From contig CAMJTE010000001.1 in assembly GCA_946408655.1 (NCBI GenBank), positions 1 to 55,078 of the forward strand: 55,078 nt of DNA, read 5' to 3'. Position 1 is the stretch's first letter, and every line of letters starts with the position of its first letter. Shown here piece by piece: positions 3,898-14,799 of this stretch. Position numbers and translations under genes: made by a program. The stretch comes from an uncultured Bacillales bacterium. Its GTDB lineage: Bacteria > Bacillota_I > Bacilli_A > RF39 > UBA660. Under the pieces are notes generated by a model. That model saw only the letters and a list, made by a program, of their open reading frames with translations, was not told the DNA's origin and searched no databases.

Positions 3898-5736
3898 TTA
3901 TTTATTATAATTGGGTCTATAAAATCCATTAATTCTTTGCTTAGAACTTGCGTCACTTCCACAATAATCTGAGGAATATGTTCCTTTCGAAACAACGTTA
4001 CCTTTATTACCTTCAACAGTATGTATAGTTCCATCTTCTTCTACTTCAACAACAAATCCAATATGACTACTTAAATATTGATCACGATCATTAAATCCAG
4101 AAATAGGTGGATAAGACTCGGTAGTTCTTAAAGGATATGGAATGTACAAGCCAGAATAACCATATTCTGGATCAAAAACAATTAAATCACCCGGACGCGG
4201 CTTAGTATTTTTATCATAACATTCATCTTCATACCAAGTTCCTAATCCTTTTTTTACCGATTCCCTTACTATTCCATCTGCTGTAGCATCTTTAACAACT
4301 AATCCTTTTGTCCTACTATCTTGATTAAATAACCACCAAATAAACGCAGCACACCAGTCAGCATCACGTCCTATTTTTATTTCATCTTGATATAATGTGC
4401 CTCCATTCCCTATTTCGCCTTTTGCAATATAAATTAATTTATTTATAATTTCATTTGAATTTGGACTAGAAGATTCATAATTATTTTTCTTTGTAGCACT
4501 TATATAACATTGAGTGCCATCCAAGTTACCTACACTACATTTATAATTGTTTTCTTCAACAGGTTTTATATAACATCCTAATCCAATTAAACTTCCTTTT
4601 TCACATTTATAGTTAGAATTTTTTCTTGCATTTATATAACATTTACCATTGTATAAATCACCAAGACCACATTTATAATTGTTTTTTATATATGCATCTA
4701 TATAACATTGAGTGCCATCAACATTTCCAACACTACATTTATAGTTGTTTTCTTTACTTGCATTTGTATAACATCGTGTACCGTCCAAGTTCCCAACACT
4801 ACATTTATAATTGTTTTTCTCAGTAGCTTTTATATAACATCGAGTACCTTTTAAATTTCCTATACTACATTTATAATTGTTTTCTTTACTTGCATTTGTA
4901 TAACATTGTGTACCGTCCAAATTCCCGACACTACATTTATAATTGTTATTTACAATTAAATCTTTGTAACACATTTTGCCTTTTTTATCTCCACCAGAAG
5001 AACAAACATATTGATTTGTTGTACCAACAATTTTCGATGCGCTTCTAACACATTGATTGCCTTTTTTATCCCAGCCTGTTGGGCATTTGTATGTTGGGGT
5101 ATTGGTTGCAATACGATAACATTTAGAACTATATAATTTCCAACCCTTTGGACAACTATATTTTGGAGTACTAGTTGCACTCCTGTAACAATTACCGCCT
5201 TCTTTTCTCCAACCATCTGGGCATTTATATGATGGATAATTTACTGCACTTCTATAGCACTTAGAGCCATATAAACTCCAGCCTCTTGGGCAACTATATT
5301 TTGGAGTATTAGTTGCACTCCTGTAACACTTTGTAGCATATCTCCTCCACCCACTTGGGCAATCATATTCAGGTGTATTGGTTGCATTTCTATAACATTT
5401 TTCACCTAATAATCTCCAACCCTTTATACAACTATATGTAGTAGTGCTAGTTGCACTTTTATAACATTGATTACCTTTTCTTATCCAACCAGTTGGACAA
5501 TTATATGTTAGATTATTAGTTGCACTTCGATAACACTTAGTTCCTTTTTTATTCCAACCATCAGGACAAGAATAACCATCGAAATCAGAGATTGAGTCGT
5601 TTTTTAATAAATTATAATTATTTAGAAAATAAAGTGCGCCAAGAAGGATAAAAAAACAAACAATAATTATAGCAGTTGCTTTTTTACGTTTTTTTCCATT
5701 ATTTTCCATTAAGACATGAACAACTTTTCTTTTCAT
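3898..5736 (-). CDS. Membrane-anchored or secreted cell-wall hydrolase: 16 two-Cys mini-repeats plus a C-terminal CHAP amidase/peptidase domain
   Basis: 612 aa. N-terminal basic and TM segment. Residues 55-419 are 22-23 aa repeats (Y-x-C-P-x-G-W-x3-G-x-x-C-Y, then Y-K-C-S-V-G-N-L-D-G-T-x-C-Y). CHAP motifs DWCAAFIWWLFNQ, GDLIVFD, SHIGFVVEV..HTVEGN. GGAG RBS 8 nt upstream. Confidence 0.8.
   Translation of the reverse strand: MKRKVVHVLMENNGKKRKKATAIIIVCFFILLGALYFLNNYNLLKNDSISDFDGYSCPDGWNKKGTKCYRSATNNLTYNCPTGWIRKGNQCYKSATSTTTYSCIKGWRLLGEKCYRNATNTPEYDCPSGWRRYATKCYRSATNTPKYSCPRGWSLYGSKCYRSAVNYPSYKCPDGWRKEGGNCYRSATSTPKYSCPKGWKLYSSKCYRIATNTPTYKCPTGWDKKGNQCVRSASKIVGTTNQYVCSSGGDKKGKMCYKDLIVNNNYKCSVGNLDGTQCYTNASKENNYKCSIGNLKGTRCYIKATEKNNYKCSVGNLDGTRCYTNASKENNYKCSVGNVDGTQCYIDAYIKNNYKCGLGDLYNGKCYINARKNSNYKCEKGSLIGLGCYIKPVEENNYKCSVGNLDGTQCYISATKKNNYESSSPNSNEIINKLIYIAKGEIGNGGTLYQDEIKIGRDADWCAAFIWWLFNQDSRTKGLVVKDATADGIVRESVKKGLGTWYEDECYDKNTKPRPGDLIVFDPEYGYSGLYIPYPLRTTESYPPISGFNDRDQYLSSHIGFVVEVEEDGTIHTVEGNKGNVVSKGTYSSDYCGSDASSKQRINGFYRPNYNK
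4480..5574 (-). repeat. In-frame coding tandem repeat array (66/69-bp period, 16 units)
   Basis: Repeat units were counted from the translation. Some DNA copies are near-identical: about 4745-4815 versus 4877-4947 differ at 3 positions. Confidence 0.85.
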
Positions 5737-5759
5737 ATATACTCCTACTTTCTAAAAAT

Positions 5760-5788
5760 ATAATAACACATAATAACTATAATATCAA
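5760..5788 (-). promoter_or_regulatory. Candidate sigma-A promoter of the repeat-CHAP gene
   Basis: Minus strand reads TTGATA, a 17-nt spacer, then TATTAT with TG at the extended -10 position. It lies about 25 nt upstream of the start codon. Confidence 0.45.
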
Positions 5789-5808
5789 CAAATTTATTTA
5801 TTGTAAAA

Positions 5809-6989
5809 CTCATTATTTGCAGAGAGTGCCTAATTAATGTATAATAATTGATATAGTTATACATTGATGAGCAACTGTGCAATTATGACGTGGTGGTCCT
5901 CTGCATAGTTGTTCATCAATGTAGAGAGGATCACCAAATATGAAAATTAGAAATAAAATTGATAACTCAAGGAGAAAAACTCCTTGGGATGATAATGCAT
6001 CACTTACTGCTACGCAAAAATTTATTAAAATAAAATATGAAGAAAATTATTGTTTTAAGCATCCCAATTTGTTATTAACAAAGGAATTTGAACTATTAAA
6101 CTCTATAAAAATAGATGAATGCCGAAGATGTGGAACTAAAAACATCAGAAAAAAAGGTTTCTCTAGAAATAATGTTCAAATGTATTACTGTAATGAATGT
6201 GAGCGACACTTTGAACCAACAACTAATACTATTTTTGAAGAGCACAAAATTTCAATAACGGAGTGGATAGAGTTTTTGCTTGACTTATTTAATTACGGAA
6301 GCACGTCATTAGTATCTAAGGTTAACAAGAATTGTATTAATACTTCCAGATATTGGTTAACGAAAACCTTCTTAGTATTAAAAGATTATCAGCAATCTAT
6401 TCTTTTAAAAGGCACAGTATATGTTGATGAATTTTACTATAAAGTTATACAAAGTAAAATTATAACTAAAGATGGTAAGCAACTTAGAGGATTATCGAAA
6501 AATCAATTTTGTATTGGTTTAGGCTATGATAAAGAAAATATTATTGCTATTCTTGAAGGTGTTGGAAAACCAAGCGAAAATAAAACAAAATTAGCTTTTA
6601 TAGATCATATAAAAACTAATTCAAAACTAATTCATGATGAAGAGAAAAGTCATAAAGTATTAATTGATGAACTTAATCTTACAGATGAATCATATAATTC
6701 TAATGATTTGAAAAAACTTGATGATAAAAATAATCCTTTACAACCAATAAATCATATTTGTGATTTATTAAGAAAGTTTTTAAACTCACATAGTGGATTT
6801 GATAGAGACAATTTACAAGATTATCTTAATCTATTCTGTTTTATGCATAACGGTTATAAAAGTAATTTGGAAAGAATTGATAAACTATTGAATATAGCTT
6901 TAAATAAAAAAGTAAGGTTAAAATATCGTGAAATGTTTAAAAAACGTGATAATGATTGAGGTTGTCAGGCACTTTCTGCAAATAATGAG
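5809..6989 (+). mobile_element. IS1595-family insertion sequence
   Basis: 22-bp terminal inverted repeats (5809-5830 ctcattatttgcagagagtgcc; 6968-6989 is its reverse complement with 1 mismatch). Flanked by a perfect 12-bp direct repeat tttattgtaaaa (5797-5808 and 6990-7001). Single transposase ORF. Confidence 0.8.
5940..6959 (+). CDS. IS1595-family DDE transposase with N-terminal zinc ribbon
   Basis: 339 aa. CRRCG..x17..CNECERHF zinc ribbon followed by TNTIFEEHKISITEW, then a DDE-type core (VYVDEFYY). RBS GAGAGGA upstream. Confidence 0.8.
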   Translation: MKIRNKIDNSRRKTPWDDNASLTATQKFIKIKYEENYCFKHPNLLLTKEFELLNSIKIDECRRCGTKNIRKKGFSRNNVQMYYCNECERHFEPTTNTIFEEHKISITEWIEFLLDLFNYGSTSLVSKVNKNCINTSRYWLTKTFLVLKDYQQSILLKGTVYVDEFYYKVIQSKIITKDGKQLRGLSKNQFCIGLGYDKENIIAILEGVGKPSENKTKLAFIDHIKTNSKLIHDEEKSHKVLIDELNLTDESYNSNDLKKLDDKNNPLQPINHICDLLRKFLNSHSGFDRDNLQDYLNLFCFMHNGYKSNLERIDKLLNIALNKKVRLKYREMFKKRDND

Positions 6990-7109
6990 TTTATTGTAAA
7001 AGTTCTGTTCAATCTTTTGACTGATGATGTTATAAACAAGTTGTATTACCTATAAAACAATGTATTGATATATCTACTTATCAGTAATTTGCTTGAACAC
7101 AGCCATTGT

Positions 7110-7151
7110 AAAAAAAAGATTTACATATAGAAATTAACCTATATGTAAATC
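7110..7151 (-). terminator. Rho-independent terminator after the coupling-protein gene
   Basis: Perfect 13-bp stem (gatttacatatag / ctatatgtaaatc), 8-nt loop, followed on the minus strand by T8. Confidence 0.85.
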
Positions 7152-7156
7152 CTTTA

Positions 7157-9304
7157 TCACTCACTAAAGAAGTCATCAAAGAATTGATCATCTGTTACTC
7201 CACCATTCTGTTTTTCTTTTGTACTAGACTTATCAGGAGTAATAACTTCTTCGATATCAGCATCAATAACTTTTTTAGAATCATCCACACTCTTTTTTTC
7301 GTCAGATTTATTCTCAGATTTTTGTTCTTGTTCTTTTCTTTCTTCTTCTTCAAGTTCGGCAATTTTAGCATCTATTCTTTTTACCATTTCATCAATATTA
7401 AATGAATTATTATTAGGTTTTGATGATCCACCACCAAAAGGATTTGCACCCATTCCACCTAGTCCTGAAGGCATTCCATTCATTCCAGGAAGTCCAGGTA
7501 ATCCTGGTAGTCCTCCCGGCATCCCACCAAATCCACCAAGTGGTAATCCTCCACCAGTAGGATTAGGGCCACCGGAACCTAACATATTATTTATTTTATC
7601 TTCTCTTTTCTTTTCTACAAAACCTTTTAAATCAAAAACCTTCACAGGTAATTTTTCATGAACAGGATAAGTTGCCTTAGGATAATTAACTCCCCAATCC
7701 ATCTTAAAATTAGGTGTTAGTTTTGTTTTAAATGGCATCATACGAATTCTAAGAACAATAGTTTCCCACATTTTCATACGTTGTAAGTCACTTACAGTAA
7801 CTAACGGAGTTGATGAGGTTTTCTCTTTTTCCTTAGATTTAACTTCACCACACATTTTACTAATCTCTTCAAGTGCAGAAAGTTCAGAACTAATTAAATA
7901 AATAATATTACCACAGTTACCTTTTATAGTCTCTCCATTTTCTTTACCATAAACTTCATAAAGCTGAGCAAAGTTCTGAATAATAAAAGTAAATCTAATA
8001 TTTCTTGAACGAGCTGCAGTAACCATTGTAGTAACATCTTTTAAAGGAGGCATATTAGCAAACTCATCTAGAATAAAGTTAGTTCTATGAGGTAATTTTC
8101 CTCCACTTTCTTGTGCAACAGAAATCAACGTTTCATAACATTGCTTTAGAAATATTGTAACTAATGCATGATAAGTTTTCTTTTCATCTTGAATAACTAT
8201 AAATACAGCTGTTTTCTTTCTACCAATATCACGCATATCGAAGTCATTATGCGCAAGCATTTCAGATAAGTTTTCACGAGAAGCAAACAACTTTATTTTT
8301 TGTTTAAATACTGATAGTATACTTCCTCTAGTTTCATTCGGAGCCATAATTGTTGAAGATGCATTAACATATGCAGGACTAGCAGGATCTTTATAACTAA
8401 AATATTCATTAACATACTTAGTATTACCTATTTTTTCTTCACCAACAGTAGTCATCAAGTTAATACTATTTAAATTTATTTCATCTTCCGCGGCATCTTC
8501 AAACAATCCTAATGATAAACCAGCAAAATAGTCTGCAGAAGTGTTTTCCCAGAATGGATCTTGCCCTTTAGATGATTCATCATAAAGTATATTTTTAGCA
8601 AGGTCATCTAATAACTCATTAGCCTTATCTTGATTACCATTTTGATAAAACGAATATGGTAAACTCATCGGATTCCAAGAATTACCTTGTTGTGGGTCAC
8701 GAAAGTTTAAAAGAACTATGTTATAACCTAAGTCTCTTAACATCTCAGATGTATCTTCAAAAATTTCACCCTTTGGGTCTGTTATAATCATTGATTCATC
8801 ATGCTTACAAAGCAATTGTACCATAGGAAGTACAGTAGTCTGTGTTTTACCTGCACCAGTAGAACCAATAACTAGATTATGGTATCCTCCATCATCAACC
8901 CAAGCTTCCTTTTCATTCATTATGATAGGAATACCAGCAGCATCATTATGTTTAGCCTTAGGATCAACTTTTTTTAATTCCTCTTTCATCTCTTTATCTT
9001 TAGCCCAACGAGAATAGTTTTTTTCTTTTTTAGCACCCACTTCAATTCCAACGCCACTACTTCTTTCAAATATATATGATTTAACACTTATTAAACCAAT
9101 AATTATTCCAATAAAGAACCCTACAATGGTCATTGAAAACATAATTCCATTAGTAAATACTAAGAATATATTTGCAGTAAATGGTTCTTCCTCGACAAAT
9201 GCATTAATATTTACAACTAAAAGTTGTACAACAATAAGCCAAACAAAAGAAAAAATACAGAAAATCAATAAATCTTTAGGCTCGACTCTTAATCTTAGTT
9301 TCAT
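7157..9304 (-). CDS. Type IV coupling protein (VirD4/TraG/TcpA-like)
   Basis: 715 aa. Two N-terminal TM helices. Walker A GSTGAGKTQT, TDPKGE, Walker B-like NFILDEFANMPP. C-terminal Gly/Pro/Met-rich low-complexity segment and acidic-aromatic tail. GGAGG RBS. Confidence 0.85.
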   Translation of the reverse strand: MKLRLRVEPKDLLIFCIFSFVWLIVVQLLVVNINAFVEEEPFTANIFLVFTNGIMFSMTIVGFFIGIIIGLISVKSYIFERSSGVGIEVGAKKEKNYSRWAKDKEMKEELKKVDPKAKHNDAAGIPIIMNEKEAWVDDGGYHNLVIGSTGAGKTQTTVLPMVQLLCKHDESMIITDPKGEIFEDTSEMLRDLGYNIVLLNFRDPQQGNSWNPMSLPYSFYQNGNQDKANELLDDLAKNILYDESSKGQDPFWENTSADYFAGLSLGLFEDAAEDEINLNSINLMTTVGEEKIGNTKYVNEYFSYKDPASPAYVNASSTIMAPNETRGSILSVFKQKIKLFASRENLSEMLAHNDFDMRDIGRKKTAVFIVIQDEKKTYHALVTIFLKQCYETLISVAQESGGKLPHRTNFILDEFANMPPLKDVTTMVTAARSRNIRFTFIIQNFAQLYEVYGKENGETIKGNCGNIIYLISSELSALEEISKMCGEVKSKEKEKTSSTPLVTVSDLQRMKMWETIVLRIRMMPFKTKLTPNFKMDWGVNYPKATYPVHEKLPVKVFDLKGFVEKKREDKINNMLGSGGPNPTGGGLPLGGFGGMPGGLPGLPGLPGMNGMPSGLGGMGANPFGGGSSKPNNNSFNIDEMVKRIDAKIAELEEEERKEQEQKSENKSDEKKSVDDSKKVIDADIEEVITPDKSSTKEKQNGGVTDDQFFDDFFSE

Positions 9305-10265: not shown

Positions 10266-11621
10266 CTAGTAATAGTGAATTGTACCTCCAAATCCTTTTG
10301 CGGTTTCTTCAACAATTTTAGCTAATTTAGATTTTTCATCATTTGGTACATTAAAATTACCTATACATTCTATATTTCCATCATCACTTTGTTGATCATG
10401 TGTTGTATATATTCCTGATGTAAATACCAACCATTCTGATTTTCTTCTTTTTATTAATCCCGGCCAAGTTATGCCATTACCATGAACATATTCACAAAAT
10501 GATTGAAATAATTTATATGTATATCCATATTTCTTGTAACCATCAATGACATTATATGTAAAACCAGCTCCACCATTATATTCACTCGACGTTAAAGCAA
10601 GAATTTGATTATTATTTAAGGTTACTCCGTTATCACTTAAAATTTTTTCAACAGATTTTCTATGTAGTTGCATTGCATAGAGATATACCCTATCTATATC
10701 TGCCTTAGGAACCCTAGAACCAACATATATTTGTGATGGATCAACGCCAGCAAGCCTAAATGCTTCAACTTCATGTGGTGTTATTCCAGGACCTATTGTC
10801 CAAACAACCCCATCTCCGCCATCATAAGCAACATAATACTCTCCTTCTTCAACACCACCTTCAAAATATCTAACCCAGTCTAATAATTCTTGTGGAATAA
10901 AACAATCATCTTCACTTGTGCCGCCTGGACCACTAGGCCTAGAATTTTCAGGATCTATATAATTTAAAGGATCGACTCTCGCCCCAAATTCATCTTGACC
11001 TTCTCTAACCTCAAAATGTAGATGTGTACCAGTTGAATGACCACTTGAACCAACTTTACCTATAACTTGTCCTTGTACAACCTTATCCCCAGCATTAACC
11101 TTAATAGTATTCTGATGAAGGTGTCCATAATATTGATAATTACCATCATTTGATTTAATAACAATGTGATTTCCATAAGAACCGCCACAACTATAATCTC
11201 CAAAAGAAACACATCCATTATAAGCTGATATAACTTCTCCAGATTGGGCAGCAATTACATTTACAACTCCAGCATCAGCTGCAGGAGCAATATCAAGACC
11301 ACCATGTCCATAATCATGAATCCCTGCCTCTGTTGCACCAAACGTTGATGATATATATACTGTATTAGGTTCTCCAGTAGCCATTTCTACTCCTTTTTCA
11401 TTGGTTACTTGATCGCTTCCAATAGGCCACATATATGACTTACTCCCACCACAGGCATCAGAATAACCCGAATCAGATCCACTATCTACTGGATATAAAT
11501 CATCAAAAAACTCTTTATAATCATATATATCTTGTCTTTCAAGTTCATACTCAGCAAAAATAATTGTAGGTATAATTAGCATTGTAATAATAAATAATAT
11601 ATATTTTTTCAAACTAATCAC
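10266..11621 (-). CDS. Bifunctional peptidoglycan hydrolase: M23/LytM metallopeptidase plus phage-type lysozyme domain
   Basis: 451 aa. Signal peptide. M23 motifs HGGLDI and GHSTGTHLHFEV. C-terminal lysozyme-like motifs (WVRYFEG, TIGPGIT, EYNGGAG, GLIKRRKSEW). The start is non-ATG: GTG at 11621, or TTG at 11612 preceded by AGGTGA. Confidence 0.8.
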   Translation of the reverse strand: MISLKKYILFIITMLIIPTIIFAEYELERQDIYDYKEFFDDLYPVDSGSDSGYSDACGGSKSYMWPIGSDQVTNEKGVEMATGEPNTVYISSTFGATEAGIHDYGHGGLDIAPAADAGVVNVIAAQSGEVISAYNGCVSFGDYSCGGSYGNHIVIKSNDGNYQYYGHLHQNTIKVNAGDKVVQGQVIGKVGSSGHSTGTHLHFEVREGQDEFGARVDPLNYIDPENSRPSGPGGTSEDDCFIPQELLDWVRYFEGGVEEGEYYVAYDGGDGVVWTIGPGITPHEVEAFRLAGVDPSQIYVGSRVPKADIDRVYLYAMQLHRKSVEKILSDNGVTLNNNQILALTSSEYNGGAGFTYNVIDGYKKYGYTYKLFQSFCEYVHGNGITWPGLIKRRKSEWLVFTSGIYTTHDQQSDDGNIECIGNFNVPNDEKSKLAKIVEETAKGFGGTIHYY

Positions 11622-11629
11622 CTCACAAC

Positions 11630-12271
11630 CTATATTTCATTACTAACTTTAATTTTTTTCATTACCATATATACTGCTAATAAAACAATAACAATTCCTG
11701 CACCTAAAATAATATAAATACTATATTTTGATAAAATAAAGCTTTTACTAGCTGTCCCTTTTGCAATCTTTATTTTAATACTAAAATCATTTTTATTCTC
11801 ATTAGTTAAATACCAAGTATATTTATTACCTTTAACTTTATCAGCATTATTACTTACAACTTTATTTTTAGTAATAATATTAATATTCAAATTATAATCA
11901 TACATACAATCTGTCATATCACTTAAATTTATTTCGTAATACTTTTCATCATCCATAATAACCTTTTTCTTAGTAAAGCATTGATTAATTGTATTAGCAT
12001 TTACAAAATCATATGGTTTATAAGTATATTTATAGATTGCAGAAATTATATTACCTTTTTTTTCTATTTTCTTTTCATACATTACATCATTATTAGCATG
12101 AAGAGGATACTGATTAGCATTTATTCTCTTCATGTTATCATCAGTATTTTCAACACTAATTCTAAACTCTTCTTTTATTGAAGAATCATTTATAAATAAA
12201 TAATATTCCTGTTTACATCCTGCTAACTCTAACAAAATTAGAATCAGCACCATAAACTTTATTTTCTTCAT
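11630..12271 (-). CDS. Lipoprotein with C-terminal TM anchor, unknown function
   Basis: 213 aa. Lipobox LLELAGC. C-terminal hydrophobic helix IYIILGAGIVIVLLAVYMV. Confidence 0.55.
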   Translation of the reverse strand: MKKIKFMVLILILLELAGCKQEYYLFINDSSIKEEFRISVENTDDNMKRINANQYPLHANNDVMYEKKIEKKGNIISAIYKYTYKPYDFVNANTINQCFTKKKVIMDDEKYYEINLSDMTDCMYDYNLNINIITKNKVVSNNADKVKGNKYTWYLTNENKNDFSIKIKIAKGTASKSFILSKYSIYIILGAGIVIVLLAVYMVMKKIKVSNEI

Positions 12272-12282
12272 ATTTCACCACA

Positions 12283-13566
12283 CTAATAATTAGGTCTAAA
12301 ATAACCATTTATTCCCTGTAATCCATAAGTTCCACAATGCGTTTTTCTATTATACTGTTTCTTTCTTACAGCATCCCCACTATTTCCTTCAACTGTATAA
12401 ACATATGTGTCATCTACCGCATATACATATCCAACGTGACTACTATAATATTTATCATTTCCATTAGCAGGCCAAGGAGTATATCCACCAACATATGGAT
12501 CAAATACGATGACATCTCCAGCAGCTGGAACTGTTCTTGGATCAGTACATTCATCTTCATACCAAGTTCCATAACCCGCTGCAACCGAAGCACGAGGAAT
12601 TTCACCTGCAATTAATGAACTTTTTATATACTTATCAATTCCTCCAATTTGATTAAATAACCAAGAAGTAAAAGCCGCACACCATTCAACTCTACCACCT
12701 GTATTAAACCAGCCCCAATATTTTGCTCCACCAGCATTAACTTGATCAGCTTCAGCAAGAGCAATTTCCGTCATTTTATCAATGGCTTCCTTACCAGTTT
12801 TAGAAACAACTGTACTAGCAGAATTATTTGGCCCTAATCCCGTAGAACAACTTTGAATCTCGGTTCCAGGAGTATGATATTTTAACTTAACATATTCTAT
12901 TAAAAAATCTTTATATTTTTTTAGGTCTAATTCATAACTTTCTTTTATAGATTCTTTATCATATTCACCATCTTCACACTTTAATGTTTCTTTAGAATAA
13001 TTAGATTTCTCAATGTCCTCTGCTTTTAACTCATCATTACTTTCTTCATTACTTTCTTCTTCATTTTTTTCTTCAGAATCATCTTTCTTACATTTATAGG
13101 TTATTGACTTTTTTACCATGTTCTTTGCAAGTATTTGCATATCATAAGAAAAATCATTAGCATTTAAATACGTATAACATGGATCATTTTTAAAATCATA
13201 TTCCCAATCCAAATTTGTAATCTGATTCTCATTTTTCAAAGAATTTCTATCATATCTATTTAAATTATTAGCAAAAACAGTAGGCAATTCTTCATTATTG
13301 TAATAAAGAGCAGCCATTATTAAAGGTAAATCTAGTGTTACTTTATATTTATTTTGATAAAGATAATATAGATCATACATTTTTAAATAAAATTTATATT
13401 CATTACCATTTCTACAATCATCATCTGAATTATCGTTTGTACAAGCTTTCATTGTTCCAAAATAGTCACTTAAATCAGATGAATCGTAATAATCAGATAT
13501 TTCATAAGCCCTATTTACTCCAACAAACATAAATATAATTAGAAATATTAATATTATCTTTTTCAT
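12283..13566 (-). CDS. Secreted CHAP-domain peptidoglycan hydrolase (paralog 2)
   Basis: 427 aa. Signal peptide, acidic linker. CHAP motifs EWCAAFTSWLFNQ, GDVIVFD, SHVGYVYAVDD..YTVEGN. C-terminal end INGYFRPNY. Confidence 0.8.
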   Translation of the reverse strand: MKKIILIFLIIFMFVGVNRAYEISDYYDSSDLSDYFGTMKACTNDNSDDDCRNGNEYKFYLKMYDLYYLYQNKYKVTLDLPLIMAALYYNNEELPTVFANNLNRYDRNSLKNENQITNLDWEYDFKNDPCYTYLNANDFSYDMQILAKNMVKKSITYKCKKDDSEEKNEEESNEESNDELKAEDIEKSNYSKETLKCEDGEYDKESIKESYELDLKKYKDFLIEYVKLKYHTPGTEIQSCSTGLGPNNSASTVVSKTGKEAIDKMTEIALAEADQVNAGGAKYWGWFNTGGRVEWCAAFTSWLFNQIGGIDKYIKSSLIAGEIPRASVAAGYGTWYEDECTDPRTVPAAGDVIVFDPYVGGYTPWPANGNDKYYSSHVGYVYAVDDTYVYTVEGNSGDAVRKKQYNRKTHCGTYGLQGINGYFRPNY

Positions 13567-13578
13567 AATTCCTCACTT

Positions 13579-14799
13579 TTAATAATTTGGTCTATAATAT
13601 CCGTTTATCATACAATCTTTTCTCTCATGCGTAACGAATACAACTCTTTCCGGATCATGGTTTCCTTCAACGGTATAAATATTTTTATCATCTACTGCAT
13701 AAACATATCCAACATGTCGACTGGAGTATCTATCCAAATAACAATCATCACCTGGCTTGCACGTATTCCAGTGAAGTACATCTCCCGACTTTGGAACTGT
13801 TTTAGAATCAGTACATTCGTCTTCATACCAAGTACCATATCCATTCGCAACAGCTCCTCTTGCACCAGGACCAGCTGCACCAGATTTTTCATAGTACTTA
13901 TCTAATCCATTTACTTGGTCAAAAAGCCATGAAACAAACATTCCACACCAATCAGCTTCAAGTCCATACCAATCTTGATATTTTCTTCTTCCAACTCCAT
14001 TTTCCGCTTCCTTTGTTGCAATTTCATTTATTTTATCAATAGTCTGATTACCAGTTTTAGGAACAGGAACAGGTGGTGTACTACTAGATGTTGACTCACC
14101 ATAATAATTAGAACCTTCTGAATTATTATTGCTGCTATTAGCATCATCGCCACTTTGATTACTATACCATTCAGTCAACTCTTCTTCTATTGGATTAGAT
14201 TTTGATGCAAGATATGCTTTACCACCAGAATCTGCAAGAGAAGAAACCATTATAACACAAAAGAAAATTGCCCCAACAAGAATACCTCCGCAAATAAAAA
14301 TAAATAAATATTTCATTTGCCTAGTTGTAATTGCTGTATATCTCGCCTCAGCAGCATCAGGTTTATATTCTTCTCCTAGCTGTTCTGCTCTATTAGCCTC
14401 TTCAACATCATCAGCACTAGCATTAGCTTTATCCCCAACTTTAGACATCAAGTTTTGAAAAAAACCCTTATTTCTAGTACTTTTAATTCTTTCAATCATT
14501 TTAGCCATTTTAGCATATTTGCGGGCTACTGGAATTCTTTCAGCAATCTTAATCGCTTTATCTATATTTTTTCCATTTTGCATCCTTCTAGTAGAATTTC
14601 TACTATTTATACCGGAAATACTACTAGAAGAACGGGTAGTAGAAGAAGTACTCCCACTTATTAATGAACTAGATGAAGATAATCCTCCTCCAGAATCTCG
14701 TTTACCAATGCTACTCCTACGTCCTTGTACAGCAGCATCTTTTCTTAACTGTCCCGTTTGTTTTGCAGTTGAAATTCCTTTAGCTACATTATCTTTCAT
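13579..14799 (-). CDS. Bitopic CHAP-domain peptidoglycan hydrolase (paralog 3) with Ser-rich cytoplasmic N-terminus
   Basis: 406 aa. Ser/Arg-rich N-terminal ~165 aa, then a TM helix (YLFIFICGGILVGAIFFCVIMV). CHAP motifs DWCGMFVSWLFDQ, RHVGYVYAVDD..YTVEGN. C-terminal end INGYYRPNY. Confidence 0.8.
   Translation of the reverse strand: MKDNVAKGISTAKQTGQLRKDAAVQGRRSSIGKRDSGGGLSSSSSLISGSTSSTTRSSSSISGINSRNSTRRMQNGKNIDKAIKIAERIPVARKYAKMAKMIERIKSTRNKGFFQNLMSKVGDKANASADDVEEANRAEQLGEEYKPDAAEARYTAITTRQMKYLFIFICGGILVGAIFFCVIMVSSLADSGGKAYLASKSNPIEEELTEWYSNQSGDDANSSNNNSEGSNYYGESTSSSTPPVPVPKTGNQTIDKINEIATKEAENGVGRRKYQDWYGLEADWCGMFVSWLFDQVNGLDKYYEKSGAAGPGARGAVANGYGTWYEDECTDSKTVPKSGDVLHWNTCKPGDDCYLDRYSSRHVGYVYAVDDKNIYTVEGNHDPERVVFVTHERKDCMINGYYRPNY

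Follow-up and report, generated by a model that had tools for sequence, protein, structure and literature searches.

A membrane-anchored CHAP hydrolase with a two-cysteine repeat rod beside a family-wide type IV secretion cluster of an uncultured Bacillales bacterium

Why should a peptidoglycan hydrolase carry sixteen tandem two-cysteine repeats, and what does its place beside a type IV secretion system (T4SS) say about its use? We addressed this question for a single gene in a 55,078-nucleotide stretch of DNA from an uncultured Bacillales bacterium (assembly GCA_946408655.1, contig CAMJTE010000001.1, positions 1 to 55,078, forward strand), hereafter called the window. The gene encodes a 612-residue protein, P0001, and is the sole full-length copy in the source genome assembly. 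We propose that P0001 is a type-II anchored peptidoglycan hydrolase whose repeats build a two-armed cysteine rod, encoded as the accessory last gene of a Gram-positive-type T4SS cluster, an explanation that we judge about as apt to hold as to fail when taken whole. Its parts, which differ in strength, are laid out in the gene as follows.

3898..5736, minus strand: single open reading frame (ORF) for the membrane-anchored repeat-rod CHAP hydrolase P0001, 612 aa
5623..5685, minus strand: predicted N-terminal signal-anchor helix, about residues 18-38 (AlphaFold helix 18-36; hydrophobic run ATAIIIVCFFILLGALYFL)
5011..5574, minus strand: A arm, units 1-8, residues 55-242, pattern YxCPxGWxxxGxxCYRSATNTP, Cys spacing 11, net charge +26
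5011..5031, minus strand: predicted hinge or tip loop IVGTTNQ, residues 236-242 (IPGTTNQ in orthologs), from alignment A2 and both AlphaFold models
4480..5010, minus strand: predicted return arm, transitional unit 9 and B units 10-16, residues 243-419, Cys spacing 10-11
4877..4947, minus strand: near-identical DNA copy 2, unit 10 region (Tandem Repeats Finder period 132)
4745..4815, minus strand: near-identical DNA copy 1, unit 12 region (3 mismatches in 71 nt against 4877-4947)
4402..4479, minus strand: Cys-free linker from rod to enzyme, residues 420-445 (AlphaFold helix 427-440; low model confidence at 409-425, as the predicted local distance difference test, pLDDT)
3901..4401, minus strand: CHAP peptidoglycan hydrolase head, residues 446-612 (PF05257 and phrog_21357)

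Split at each Y-x-C, residues 55-419 fall into 16 two-Cys units with 32 Cys, as a first reading of the DNA letters (the original prediction) had stated. That reading counted eight 23-aa units; we found seven, since units 1-7 are each exactly 23 aa (consensus YxCPxGWxxxGxKCYRSATNTPx) and unit 8 has 27 aa, ending in the hinge sequence SKIVGTTNQ. Its single transitional unit followed by seven 22-aa units was recovered by the splitting: unit 9 (23 aa, CSSGG) begins YVCSSGGDKKGKMC, and units 10-16 are each exactly 22 aa, with the pattern YKCSxGNLxGTxCYIxAxxxNN. From Cys to Cys the distance is 11 within and 12 between units over the first half of the array; over the second half the two values are 10 and 12. 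Tandem Repeats Finder reported a period of 69 at 5079-5561 (score 315) and of 66/132 at 4496-4971 (scores 330-406), and the periodicity of the array is far beyond chance.

At the DNA level, the segments 4745-4815 and 4877-4947 differ at exactly the three positions originally counted (3/71). Near-identity is confined to this pair, formed by units 10 and 12 (94% nt), and does not extend to the whole array, in which the remaining unit pairs share 39-80% DNA identity. The two similar copies are non-adjacent, lying 132 bp apart; because of this spacing and the divergence of the other units, the contingency by strand slippage that had been suggested is unlikely. The recombinational half of that suggestion fared better. 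The window array is the most homogenised one, with a best unit pair at 94% nt versus 68-80% in orthologs and with more regular units, and its units are closer to each other than to any ortholog unit, which points to recent duplication or gene conversion in the window lineage.

The CHAP domain was borne out by a PF05257 match over residues 458-577 (31.8 bits against a cut-off of 26) and by a match to the PHROG endolysin family phrog_21357 (E 1e-12); the orthologs P0004 and P0005 likewise match PF05257. Cys462 (DWCAAF) and His558 (SSHIG), conserved across all CHAP-type orthologs in alignment A1, are the candidate catalytic pair. Several penicillin-binding protein transpeptidases are encoded in the source genome, and the organism therefore has a wall to serve as CHAP substrate. 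Residues 1-19 form a strongly basic stretch (MKRKVVHVLMENNGKKRKK) ahead of the anchor helix, and no AxA-type or other obvious signal-peptidase cleavage site was seen on inspection of the sequence after that helix. By the positive-inside rule the anchor is predicted to lie N-in, C-out, with the basic stretch in the cytoplasm. We are highly confident that an extracellular, repeat-clamped module is carried on a real hydrolase.

A predicted out-and-back rod

Repeat number is not invariant among relatives, in keeping with the expandable array first envisaged: syntenic orthologs have 12 (L023), 12 (L024), 16 (window) and 18 units (L026/L027). The order of A units, hinge, transitional unit and B units is constant in all orthologs of this A/hinge/B type, and in every one of them the A units equal in number the transitional plus B units (8=8, 6=6, 6=6, 9=9). 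From these equal numbers it follows that the two arms changed in step. Such an equal-arm rule predicts an out-and-back rod, with a length counted in unit pairs.

A second line of evidence comes from AlphaFold models of the full-length protein and of segment 124-353, the latter centred on the hinge and built on a clean five-sequence alignment (A2). In A2 all 20 Cys columns are invariant, as are the hinge columns I113, G115, T117 and N118, and the IVGTTNQ hinge is the most conserved non-Cys motif of the rod. The full-length model was poor as a whole (pLDDT 61) but better for residues 130-330 (72-83), and the best segment model reached a mean of 87.3. Both show the same three-strand pattern in every unit: a C-P-x-G-W loop, a 3-residue strand, a 2-residue turn, a 5-residue strand, a kink and a 7-residue strand. 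The hinge appears in both as a 7-residue coil between two paired 2-residue strands.

We compared the secondary structure of the two arms as assigned by DSSP. The pattern is periodic and the DSSP agreement matrix as a whole is uninformative; the mirrored breaks alone carry information. In both models the integrity of the link strand after unit k mirrors that after unit 16-k. For U5 and U11 the segment model gives EE--EEE and EEE--EE, just as antiparallel partners sharing a bulge would show; the full-length model lacks a 7-residue link strand in U2 and U14 and in no other unit. Strands of seven residues need partners of seven residues, and a single arm offers none. A fold-back would also explain why the link from Cys2 to the next Cys1 is held at 12 in both arms and in nearly all orthologs beside a Cys1-Cys2 flap that varies from 10 to 15. 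Taken together, the models and unit counts argue for an out-and-back topology with the I-V/P-GTTNQ loop at the tip and the enzyme near the membrane, which we rate slightly better than an even call.

Several points weigh against this topology. The models were built on shallow alignments of 5-6 sequences, four of the five segment models were poor (pLDDT 51-63), and the predicted template modelling score (pTM) was 0.34-0.39 across models (0.39 for the segment). The case for a fold-back consists of DSSP symmetry and unit counts, and the parity comes from three independent rods. Both arms are cationic, which disfavours close pairing. Relatives such as L028 and P0170 have a Cys-free, Lys-rich spacer in place of a second arm. 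Foldseek, one of the checks originally suggested for the repeat, returned no solved structure resembling the rod.

Some of these points suit a simple extended stalk, in which the 16 units stand in a row, the CHAP head at the far end extends to the outer wall or to a partner cell, and the reach is tuned by unit number. The range of 12 to 18 units would fit such tuning, a low pTM beside good local pLDDT is in line with an elongated chain that lacks long-range contacts, both arms are cationic, and the spacer of L028/P0170 could not zip likewise to the first arm. An extended stalk, however, leaves both the equal arm numbers in all A/hinge/B orthologs and the mirrored strand breaks in two models unexplained, and it provides no partner for fully hydrogen-bonded 7-residue link strands. 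We regard it as unlikely, if a serious contender, and the simple stalk of the original prediction, taken with the enzyme at its far end, is probably wrong on account of arm parity and the mirrored strands of the two models.

Genomic setting and variation of the rod hydrolase

The hydrolase gene lies at the end of a T4SS gene cluster that also encodes a VirB4-like ATPase, an M23 plus lysozyme protein and two further CHAP proteins; these three other hydrolases lie at 10266-14799. The features next to it are listed below.

5737..5808, minus strand: the hydrolase gene's own upstream region with a promoter-like TTGATA-17-TATTAT, an extended -10 TG (5788-5760) and the ribosome-binding site AGTAGGAG, all by consensus matches only
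5940-6959, plus strand: transposase ORF of 339 aa, from the ORF list, belonging to an insertion sequence (IS) between the coupling-protein gene and the hydrolase gene
7157..9304, minus strand: VirD4/TraG-type T4SS coupling protein, the conserved upstream neighbour (PF02534, E 1.6e-56)

The 339-aa transposase ORF at 5940-6959 had no Pfam match. In orthologous loci without the IS, the hydrolase gene directly follows VirD4 (L023-L028, L053), and across every related contig found, a repeat hydrolase lies directly downstream of the VirD4 gene in 8 loci (L023-L028, L053, L054). Genes for a rhodanese and RmuC usually come next; in L028 the downstream genes differ and the VirD4 linkage is kept. This location, next to a T4SS cluster and conserved across relatives, is that of T4SS-associated hydrolases.

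The T4SS itself is widespread in the host family. A full-length VirD4-like ortholog (49-73% identity) occurs in 60/61 family genomes, drawn from 61 genera, and in 49/49 of the high-quality ones, with RmuC and usually the rhodanese downstream of the coupling protein in most genera. The near-universal coupling protein makes the T4SS a core trait rather than a sporadic mobile element, and it looks like a vertically inherited core organ. The family keeps it in nearly every genome despite strong genome reduction (host-family genomes measure 0.4-1.7 Mb), and its accessory parts therefore bear on the lifestyle of these uncultured gut bacteria. The slot after VirD4 is empty or filled by unrelated genes in 20 other genera, which makes the rod hydrolase a lineage-specific accessory. 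A scan of the genome contigs with the protein yielded one distant relative (L004), and the hinge DNA pattern PGTTNQY, which the window escapes by having V for P, gave chance-level matches only in 401 family genomes.

Compared with its neighbours, the rod changes fast. Between the window and L027, protein identity is 93% for VirD4, 94% for the rhodanese and 98.6% for RmuC, versus ~50% for the rod, 40% for the N-terminus and 75% for the CHAP head. The flanking DNA is 88-90% identical, which marks L027, the nearest relative, as another species of the genus, and the rod DNA is not alignable. No same-species sequence was present in the protein collections searched. Rods of 12-18 units differ little in net charge, with +38, +36, +34 and +36 in the window, L023, L024 and L027, which suggests selection on total charge.

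The enzyme carried by the rod can also differ. The CHAP protein of L027 and the M23 protein P0002 have rods that are 100% identical over ~370 aa. In L053 (463-4287), twin tandem genes encode an M23-headed protein of 660 aa and a CHAP-headed protein of 602 aa with a common N-terminus, anchor and rod; they show 3 nt differences in the first 1144 nt and 98% identity over 411 aa, after which the heads diverge. This pattern indicates gene conversion or very recent duplication, and single-head loci could be recombination or deletion products of such twins, or the result of assembly collapse. Conversely, the same CHAP head occurs elsewhere with Flg_new repeats, or with long-flap Cys units and a Lys-rich spacer. 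P0169 and P0174 (L054, L055) have orthologous CHAP heads (58-62% identical), placed directly after the anchor and followed by Flg_new (PF09479) repeats; the domains are thus in reverse order, although the locus, with rhodanese and RmuC as neighbours, is the same. One rod with two heads amounts to natural swapping of enzyme heads on a conserved scaffold, which may be useful for lysin engineering.

Does the hydrolase serve the T4SS? The gene order suggests a T4SS role rather than housekeeping autolysis, and we hold the question to be evenly balanced. On the opposing side, gene order is the whole of that argument, and most family genera have the T4SS and lack the rod hydrolase. The hydrolase gene has its own promoter-like site, and a terminator-like hairpin (GGATTTACATATAG...CTATATGTAAATC) with a T run lies at 7105-7150 (minus strand), directly 3' of the VirD4 stop. 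The two-Cys repeat, moreover, is not specific to conjugation, because relatives from the same family carry it fused to Ser/Thr kinases, an LCP enzyme, LysM and dockerin.

These points would suit a housekeeping autolysin for cell separation or wall turnover, with cationic repeats that bind the wall (for example, teichoic acids) and an incidental T4SS neighbour. The T4SS-rhodanese-RmuC order is chromosomal across the whole family, the gene has a promoter-like site to itself and a terminator-like hairpin comes after VirD4, a charge of +36 is typical of wall-binding modules, and the same CHAP head is found with Flg_new surface repeats. Yet absence from most family genera is odd for a housekeeping gene, the L028 gene stays with VirD4 though the genes downstream differ, the VirD4 and hydrolase genes of L027 lie just 52 bp apart and no hairpin is evident between them, and the divergence is extreme relative to the flanks. 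A housekeeping autolysin is in our view rather unlikely.

The two-cysteine unit and its chemistry

The unit belongs to no named family that we searched. Neither Pfam nor NCBIfam gave a match at E<=1 over the P0001 repeat, LysM, SH3b, CW_binding_1, GW, SLH, PG_binding and SPOR included, and the earlier statement that it is not a named wall-binding module holds. Relatives made almost wholly of such units likewise had no Pfam or NCBIfam match to the repeat at E<=1. Positions 152-288 of the TraN subfamily model NF009017 match the repeat region of the relative P0035. Searching 1.84 billion representatives (clusters at 50% identity) by phmmer with residues 55-421, we obtained 932 proteins at E<=1e-3, of which 55 reached E<=1e-30; some exceed 4000 aa. 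Eleven of 68 of the best rod matches (11/68) carry PF06986 (F_T4SS_TraN) at the C-terminus and are named TraN by NCBIfam. Both the spacing-11 (CPxGY) and the spacing-10 (CSxGxL) flavours are present in distant phyla.

Within the host lineage, the two-Cys unit appears to be a general surface module. In the relatives L010, L015, L012, L014, L009, L004 and L016 it makes up the extracellular portion of Ser/Thr kinases, an LCP (LytR-Cps2A-Psr-like) protein and anti-sigma-like proteins, and it is found besides in a family whose N-terminal domain (…FTNERLPK…) is conserved and whose C-terminus has a YKWS..GW..TG.TR motif. A literature search with motif strings gave only EGF/Notch papers, and one on cysteine-rich repeats, T4SS and hydrolases found no description of this protein type. 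With respect to the library searched, Pfam and NCBIfam, what is new is the unit as a family, the equal A/hinge/B arms on an enzyme, the twin heads and the place in a family-wide T4SS; T4SS-linked hydrolases and the cysteine-rich stalks of TraN are already known. The unit, with its two Cys, variable flap and 12-residue link, occurs in about 900 representatives, a set that spans giant proteins, Ser/Thr kinases, LCP enzymes and true TraN adhesins, and naming it would annotate many 'hypothetical' surface proteins.

The eukaryote-like look noted at first is real at the level of the motif and goes no further. A phmmer search of PDB sequences matched only the CPxxW...CY first hairpin of C-type lectins, ~30-40 residues at E 0.02-0.09 (6kzr, 5b1w); Foldseek matches to lectin domains were weak (template modelling score <= 0.24, E > 1), and the whole ~120-residue C-type lectin fold was not matched. 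cEGF matches in relatives stayed below threshold (17-24 bits against a cut-off of 26.6), as did Sushi, and none fell on P0001. P0001 is not a member of the EGF, cEGF or furin-like families, having no match to them and two Cys per unit rather than six or more. The resemblance is probably convergent or too old to trace.

Eukaryotic and viral proteins also appeared in these searches. The strong rod matches P0031, P0034 and P0108 are eukaryotic-looking, with a signal peptide, a period of ~25-27 aa and a Lys-rich tail; the animal model FOG_N is matched by two rod relatives and CBM_14 by one. In BFVD, the predicted proteins A0A8F8KL79, A0A6M6DDH0 and E5EQ87 of large viruses match the rod model locally (E 1e-5 to 1e-4, ~17-19% identity), one of them labelled a hemagglutinin of Clandestinovirus. 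The two-Cys unit may thus not be confined to bacteria, and some viral surface proteins may bear similar Cys-hairpin arrays.

What the cysteines do is the next question. The rod is extracytoplasmic, has two invariant Cys per unit and contains neither CxxC nor His knuckles, and for these reasons one disulfide per unit is favoured; a Cys1-Cys2 clamp in each unit is probable. Against this, the 84%-complete genome yielded no gene for DsbA, DsbB, VKOR or Thioredoxin_4 and the habitat is probably anoxic, so that disulfide formation is not assured. The genome contains, at G000:C45:454-1293 (minus strand; L081), a gene for a 279-aa protein that has a membrane anchor at its N-terminus and a CxxC motif in each of its two thioredoxin-like domains (CSYC, CSHC), a candidate extracytoplasmic thiol-disulfide oxidoreductase or oxidase.

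The lack of Dsb-type genes and the anoxic gut setting would suit metal-binding repeats instead, in which unit pairs offer four Cys to zinc or iron. The extracytoplasmic location without CxxC or His knuckles speaks against metal, and so does the pattern of Cys pairs, one per unit and always 10-11 positions apart, which is that of the single-disulfide hairpins of EGF and C-type lectins. In addition, the genome encodes the exported protein with two CxxC thioredoxin-like domains, and all Cys of TraN are predicted to be disulfide-bonded (PMC9246713). We consider metal binding quite improbable.

Proposed working and known systems

In the working that we propose, each of the 16 units would present a variable flap (Cys1-x9/10-Cys2, with CPxGW or CSxGN), its base clamped by the Cys1-Cys2 disulfide, and successive units would be connected by a stretch that does not vary in length, with 12 positions from Cys2 to the following Cys1. 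The chain would run outward through the eight A units, turn at I-V/P-GTTNQ and return through the transitional and seven B units, with the links of both arms paired antiparallel, unit k with unit 16-k. The product would be a cationic (~+36), two-armed rod, as long as its count of unit pairs dictates (6, 8 or 9 among the known orthologs); at 7 to 12 residues per pair and 3.3 Å per residue, a rough estimate for the 8-pair rod would be 18-32 nm.

The fold-back would return the CHAP head close to the membrane anchor, where it would cut peptide links of the wall locally, beside the secretion apparatus. The rod would span or bind the anionic wall and display its tip at the surface, like the Cys-rich stalk of TraN in Gram-negative mating. 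It would be the fast-evolving, recombining part of the protein, its unit number shifting by duplication or loss of units and by gene conversion, and it can bear either of two heads, CHAP or M23, encoded by a pair of twin genes or by one gene alone.

That the rods are instead contact-dependent weapons, with swappable lytic heads that attack neighbours' walls and vary in an arms race as polymorphic toxins do, is very improbable: interchangeable CHAP and M23 heads on an identical rod, the existence of twin genes, the fast divergence of the rod and small genomes (0.4-1.7 Mb) with a universally kept T4SS, which could fit dependence on other cells, would be in its favour, but no variable immunity-like gene adjoins (the neighbour is the conserved rhodanese), a PADLOC search gave no match, and a head on a rod that folds back would not be exposed at the tip.

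The two-armed rod hydrolase allows a further, joint reading as a 'dipstick', a length-coded out-and-back rod of a family-core T4SS machine. Here the conserved IPGTTNQ tip would make contact with the surface of the wall or with a partner cell, the pair count (6, 8, 9) would match envelope thickness, and gene conversion would keep CHAP and M23 on identical rods, which would give the two heads the same working depth. Specificity for partner or strain would lie in the fast-changing arms, and the whole would be a Gram-positive counterpart of TraN fused to an enzyme. Taken jointly, these elements are rather doubtful.

Among known systems, the hydrolases of Gram-positive conjugation resemble P0001 in setting: PrgK (pCF10), TraG (pIP501), CwlT (ICEBs1), Orf14 (Tn916) and TcpG (pCW3). 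They are encoded in T4SS clusters, have CHAP or NlpC/P60-type heads, sometimes with M23/LytM-like or lysozyme-like domains, are in several cases membrane anchored, and are thought to open the wall locally for the channel. None of the five is known to carry a cysteine-repeat rod. Unlike them, P0001 is lineage-specific and hypervariable, and the core role may be filled here by the three hydrolases at 10266-14799.

By architecture, the choline-binding or CW_binding_1 repeats invite comparison, being tandem hairpins of ~20 residues (G-W ... G-x-x-aromatic) on wall hydrolases, with variable unit number. They have no cysteines and form a solenoid, whereas the P0001 rod bears Cys, is predicted to be two-armed and has no Pfam match at E<=1. 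EGF-like/cEGF (PF12662), Sushi and long-form C-type lectins have in common with the rod the motif C-P-x-G-[YW]-x-x-x-G-x-x-C-[YF], a disulfide-tied beta-hairpin that in the rod is probable. EGF differs in having six Cys in ~40 residues, where the rod unit has two in ~22 and no match that reaches the Pfam cut-off, and of the C-type lectin fold only the first hairpin is matched by the rod.

The repeat itself is shared with TraN, which we took as the long F-type mating-pair stabilisation proteins of PF06986 (NCBIfam TIGR02750 / NF009013-NF009019). The rod matches TraN proteins at E 1e-50 to 1e-75, with P0026 at E 1.5e-75. Like the rod, TraN contains arrays of a two-Cys unit (YxCPxG[YW]xLxGxxC) with a link of ~12, is encoded in a conjugative T4SS cluster, is surface exposed and has a variable region. 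In TraN, an N-terminal, beta-rich part leads to a variable tip and the C-terminal part folds back on it, with all Cys predicted in disulfides (PMC9246713), a description that counts in favour of the out-and-back topology. P0026 has 11 + 11 units around a central insert, by a crude count that is too rough to speak to parity. The two also differ. TraN is an outer-membrane protein of Gram-negative F-type systems with a PF06986 C-terminal domain and no enzyme, whereas the T4SS here is of Gram-positive type and P0001 has no PF06986 match, a membrane anchor and CHAP in that position. The surface contact factors of Gram-positive-type systems are poorly known, and through the rod hydrolase a component of such a system is tied to the variable stalk of TraN in Gram-negative bacteria.

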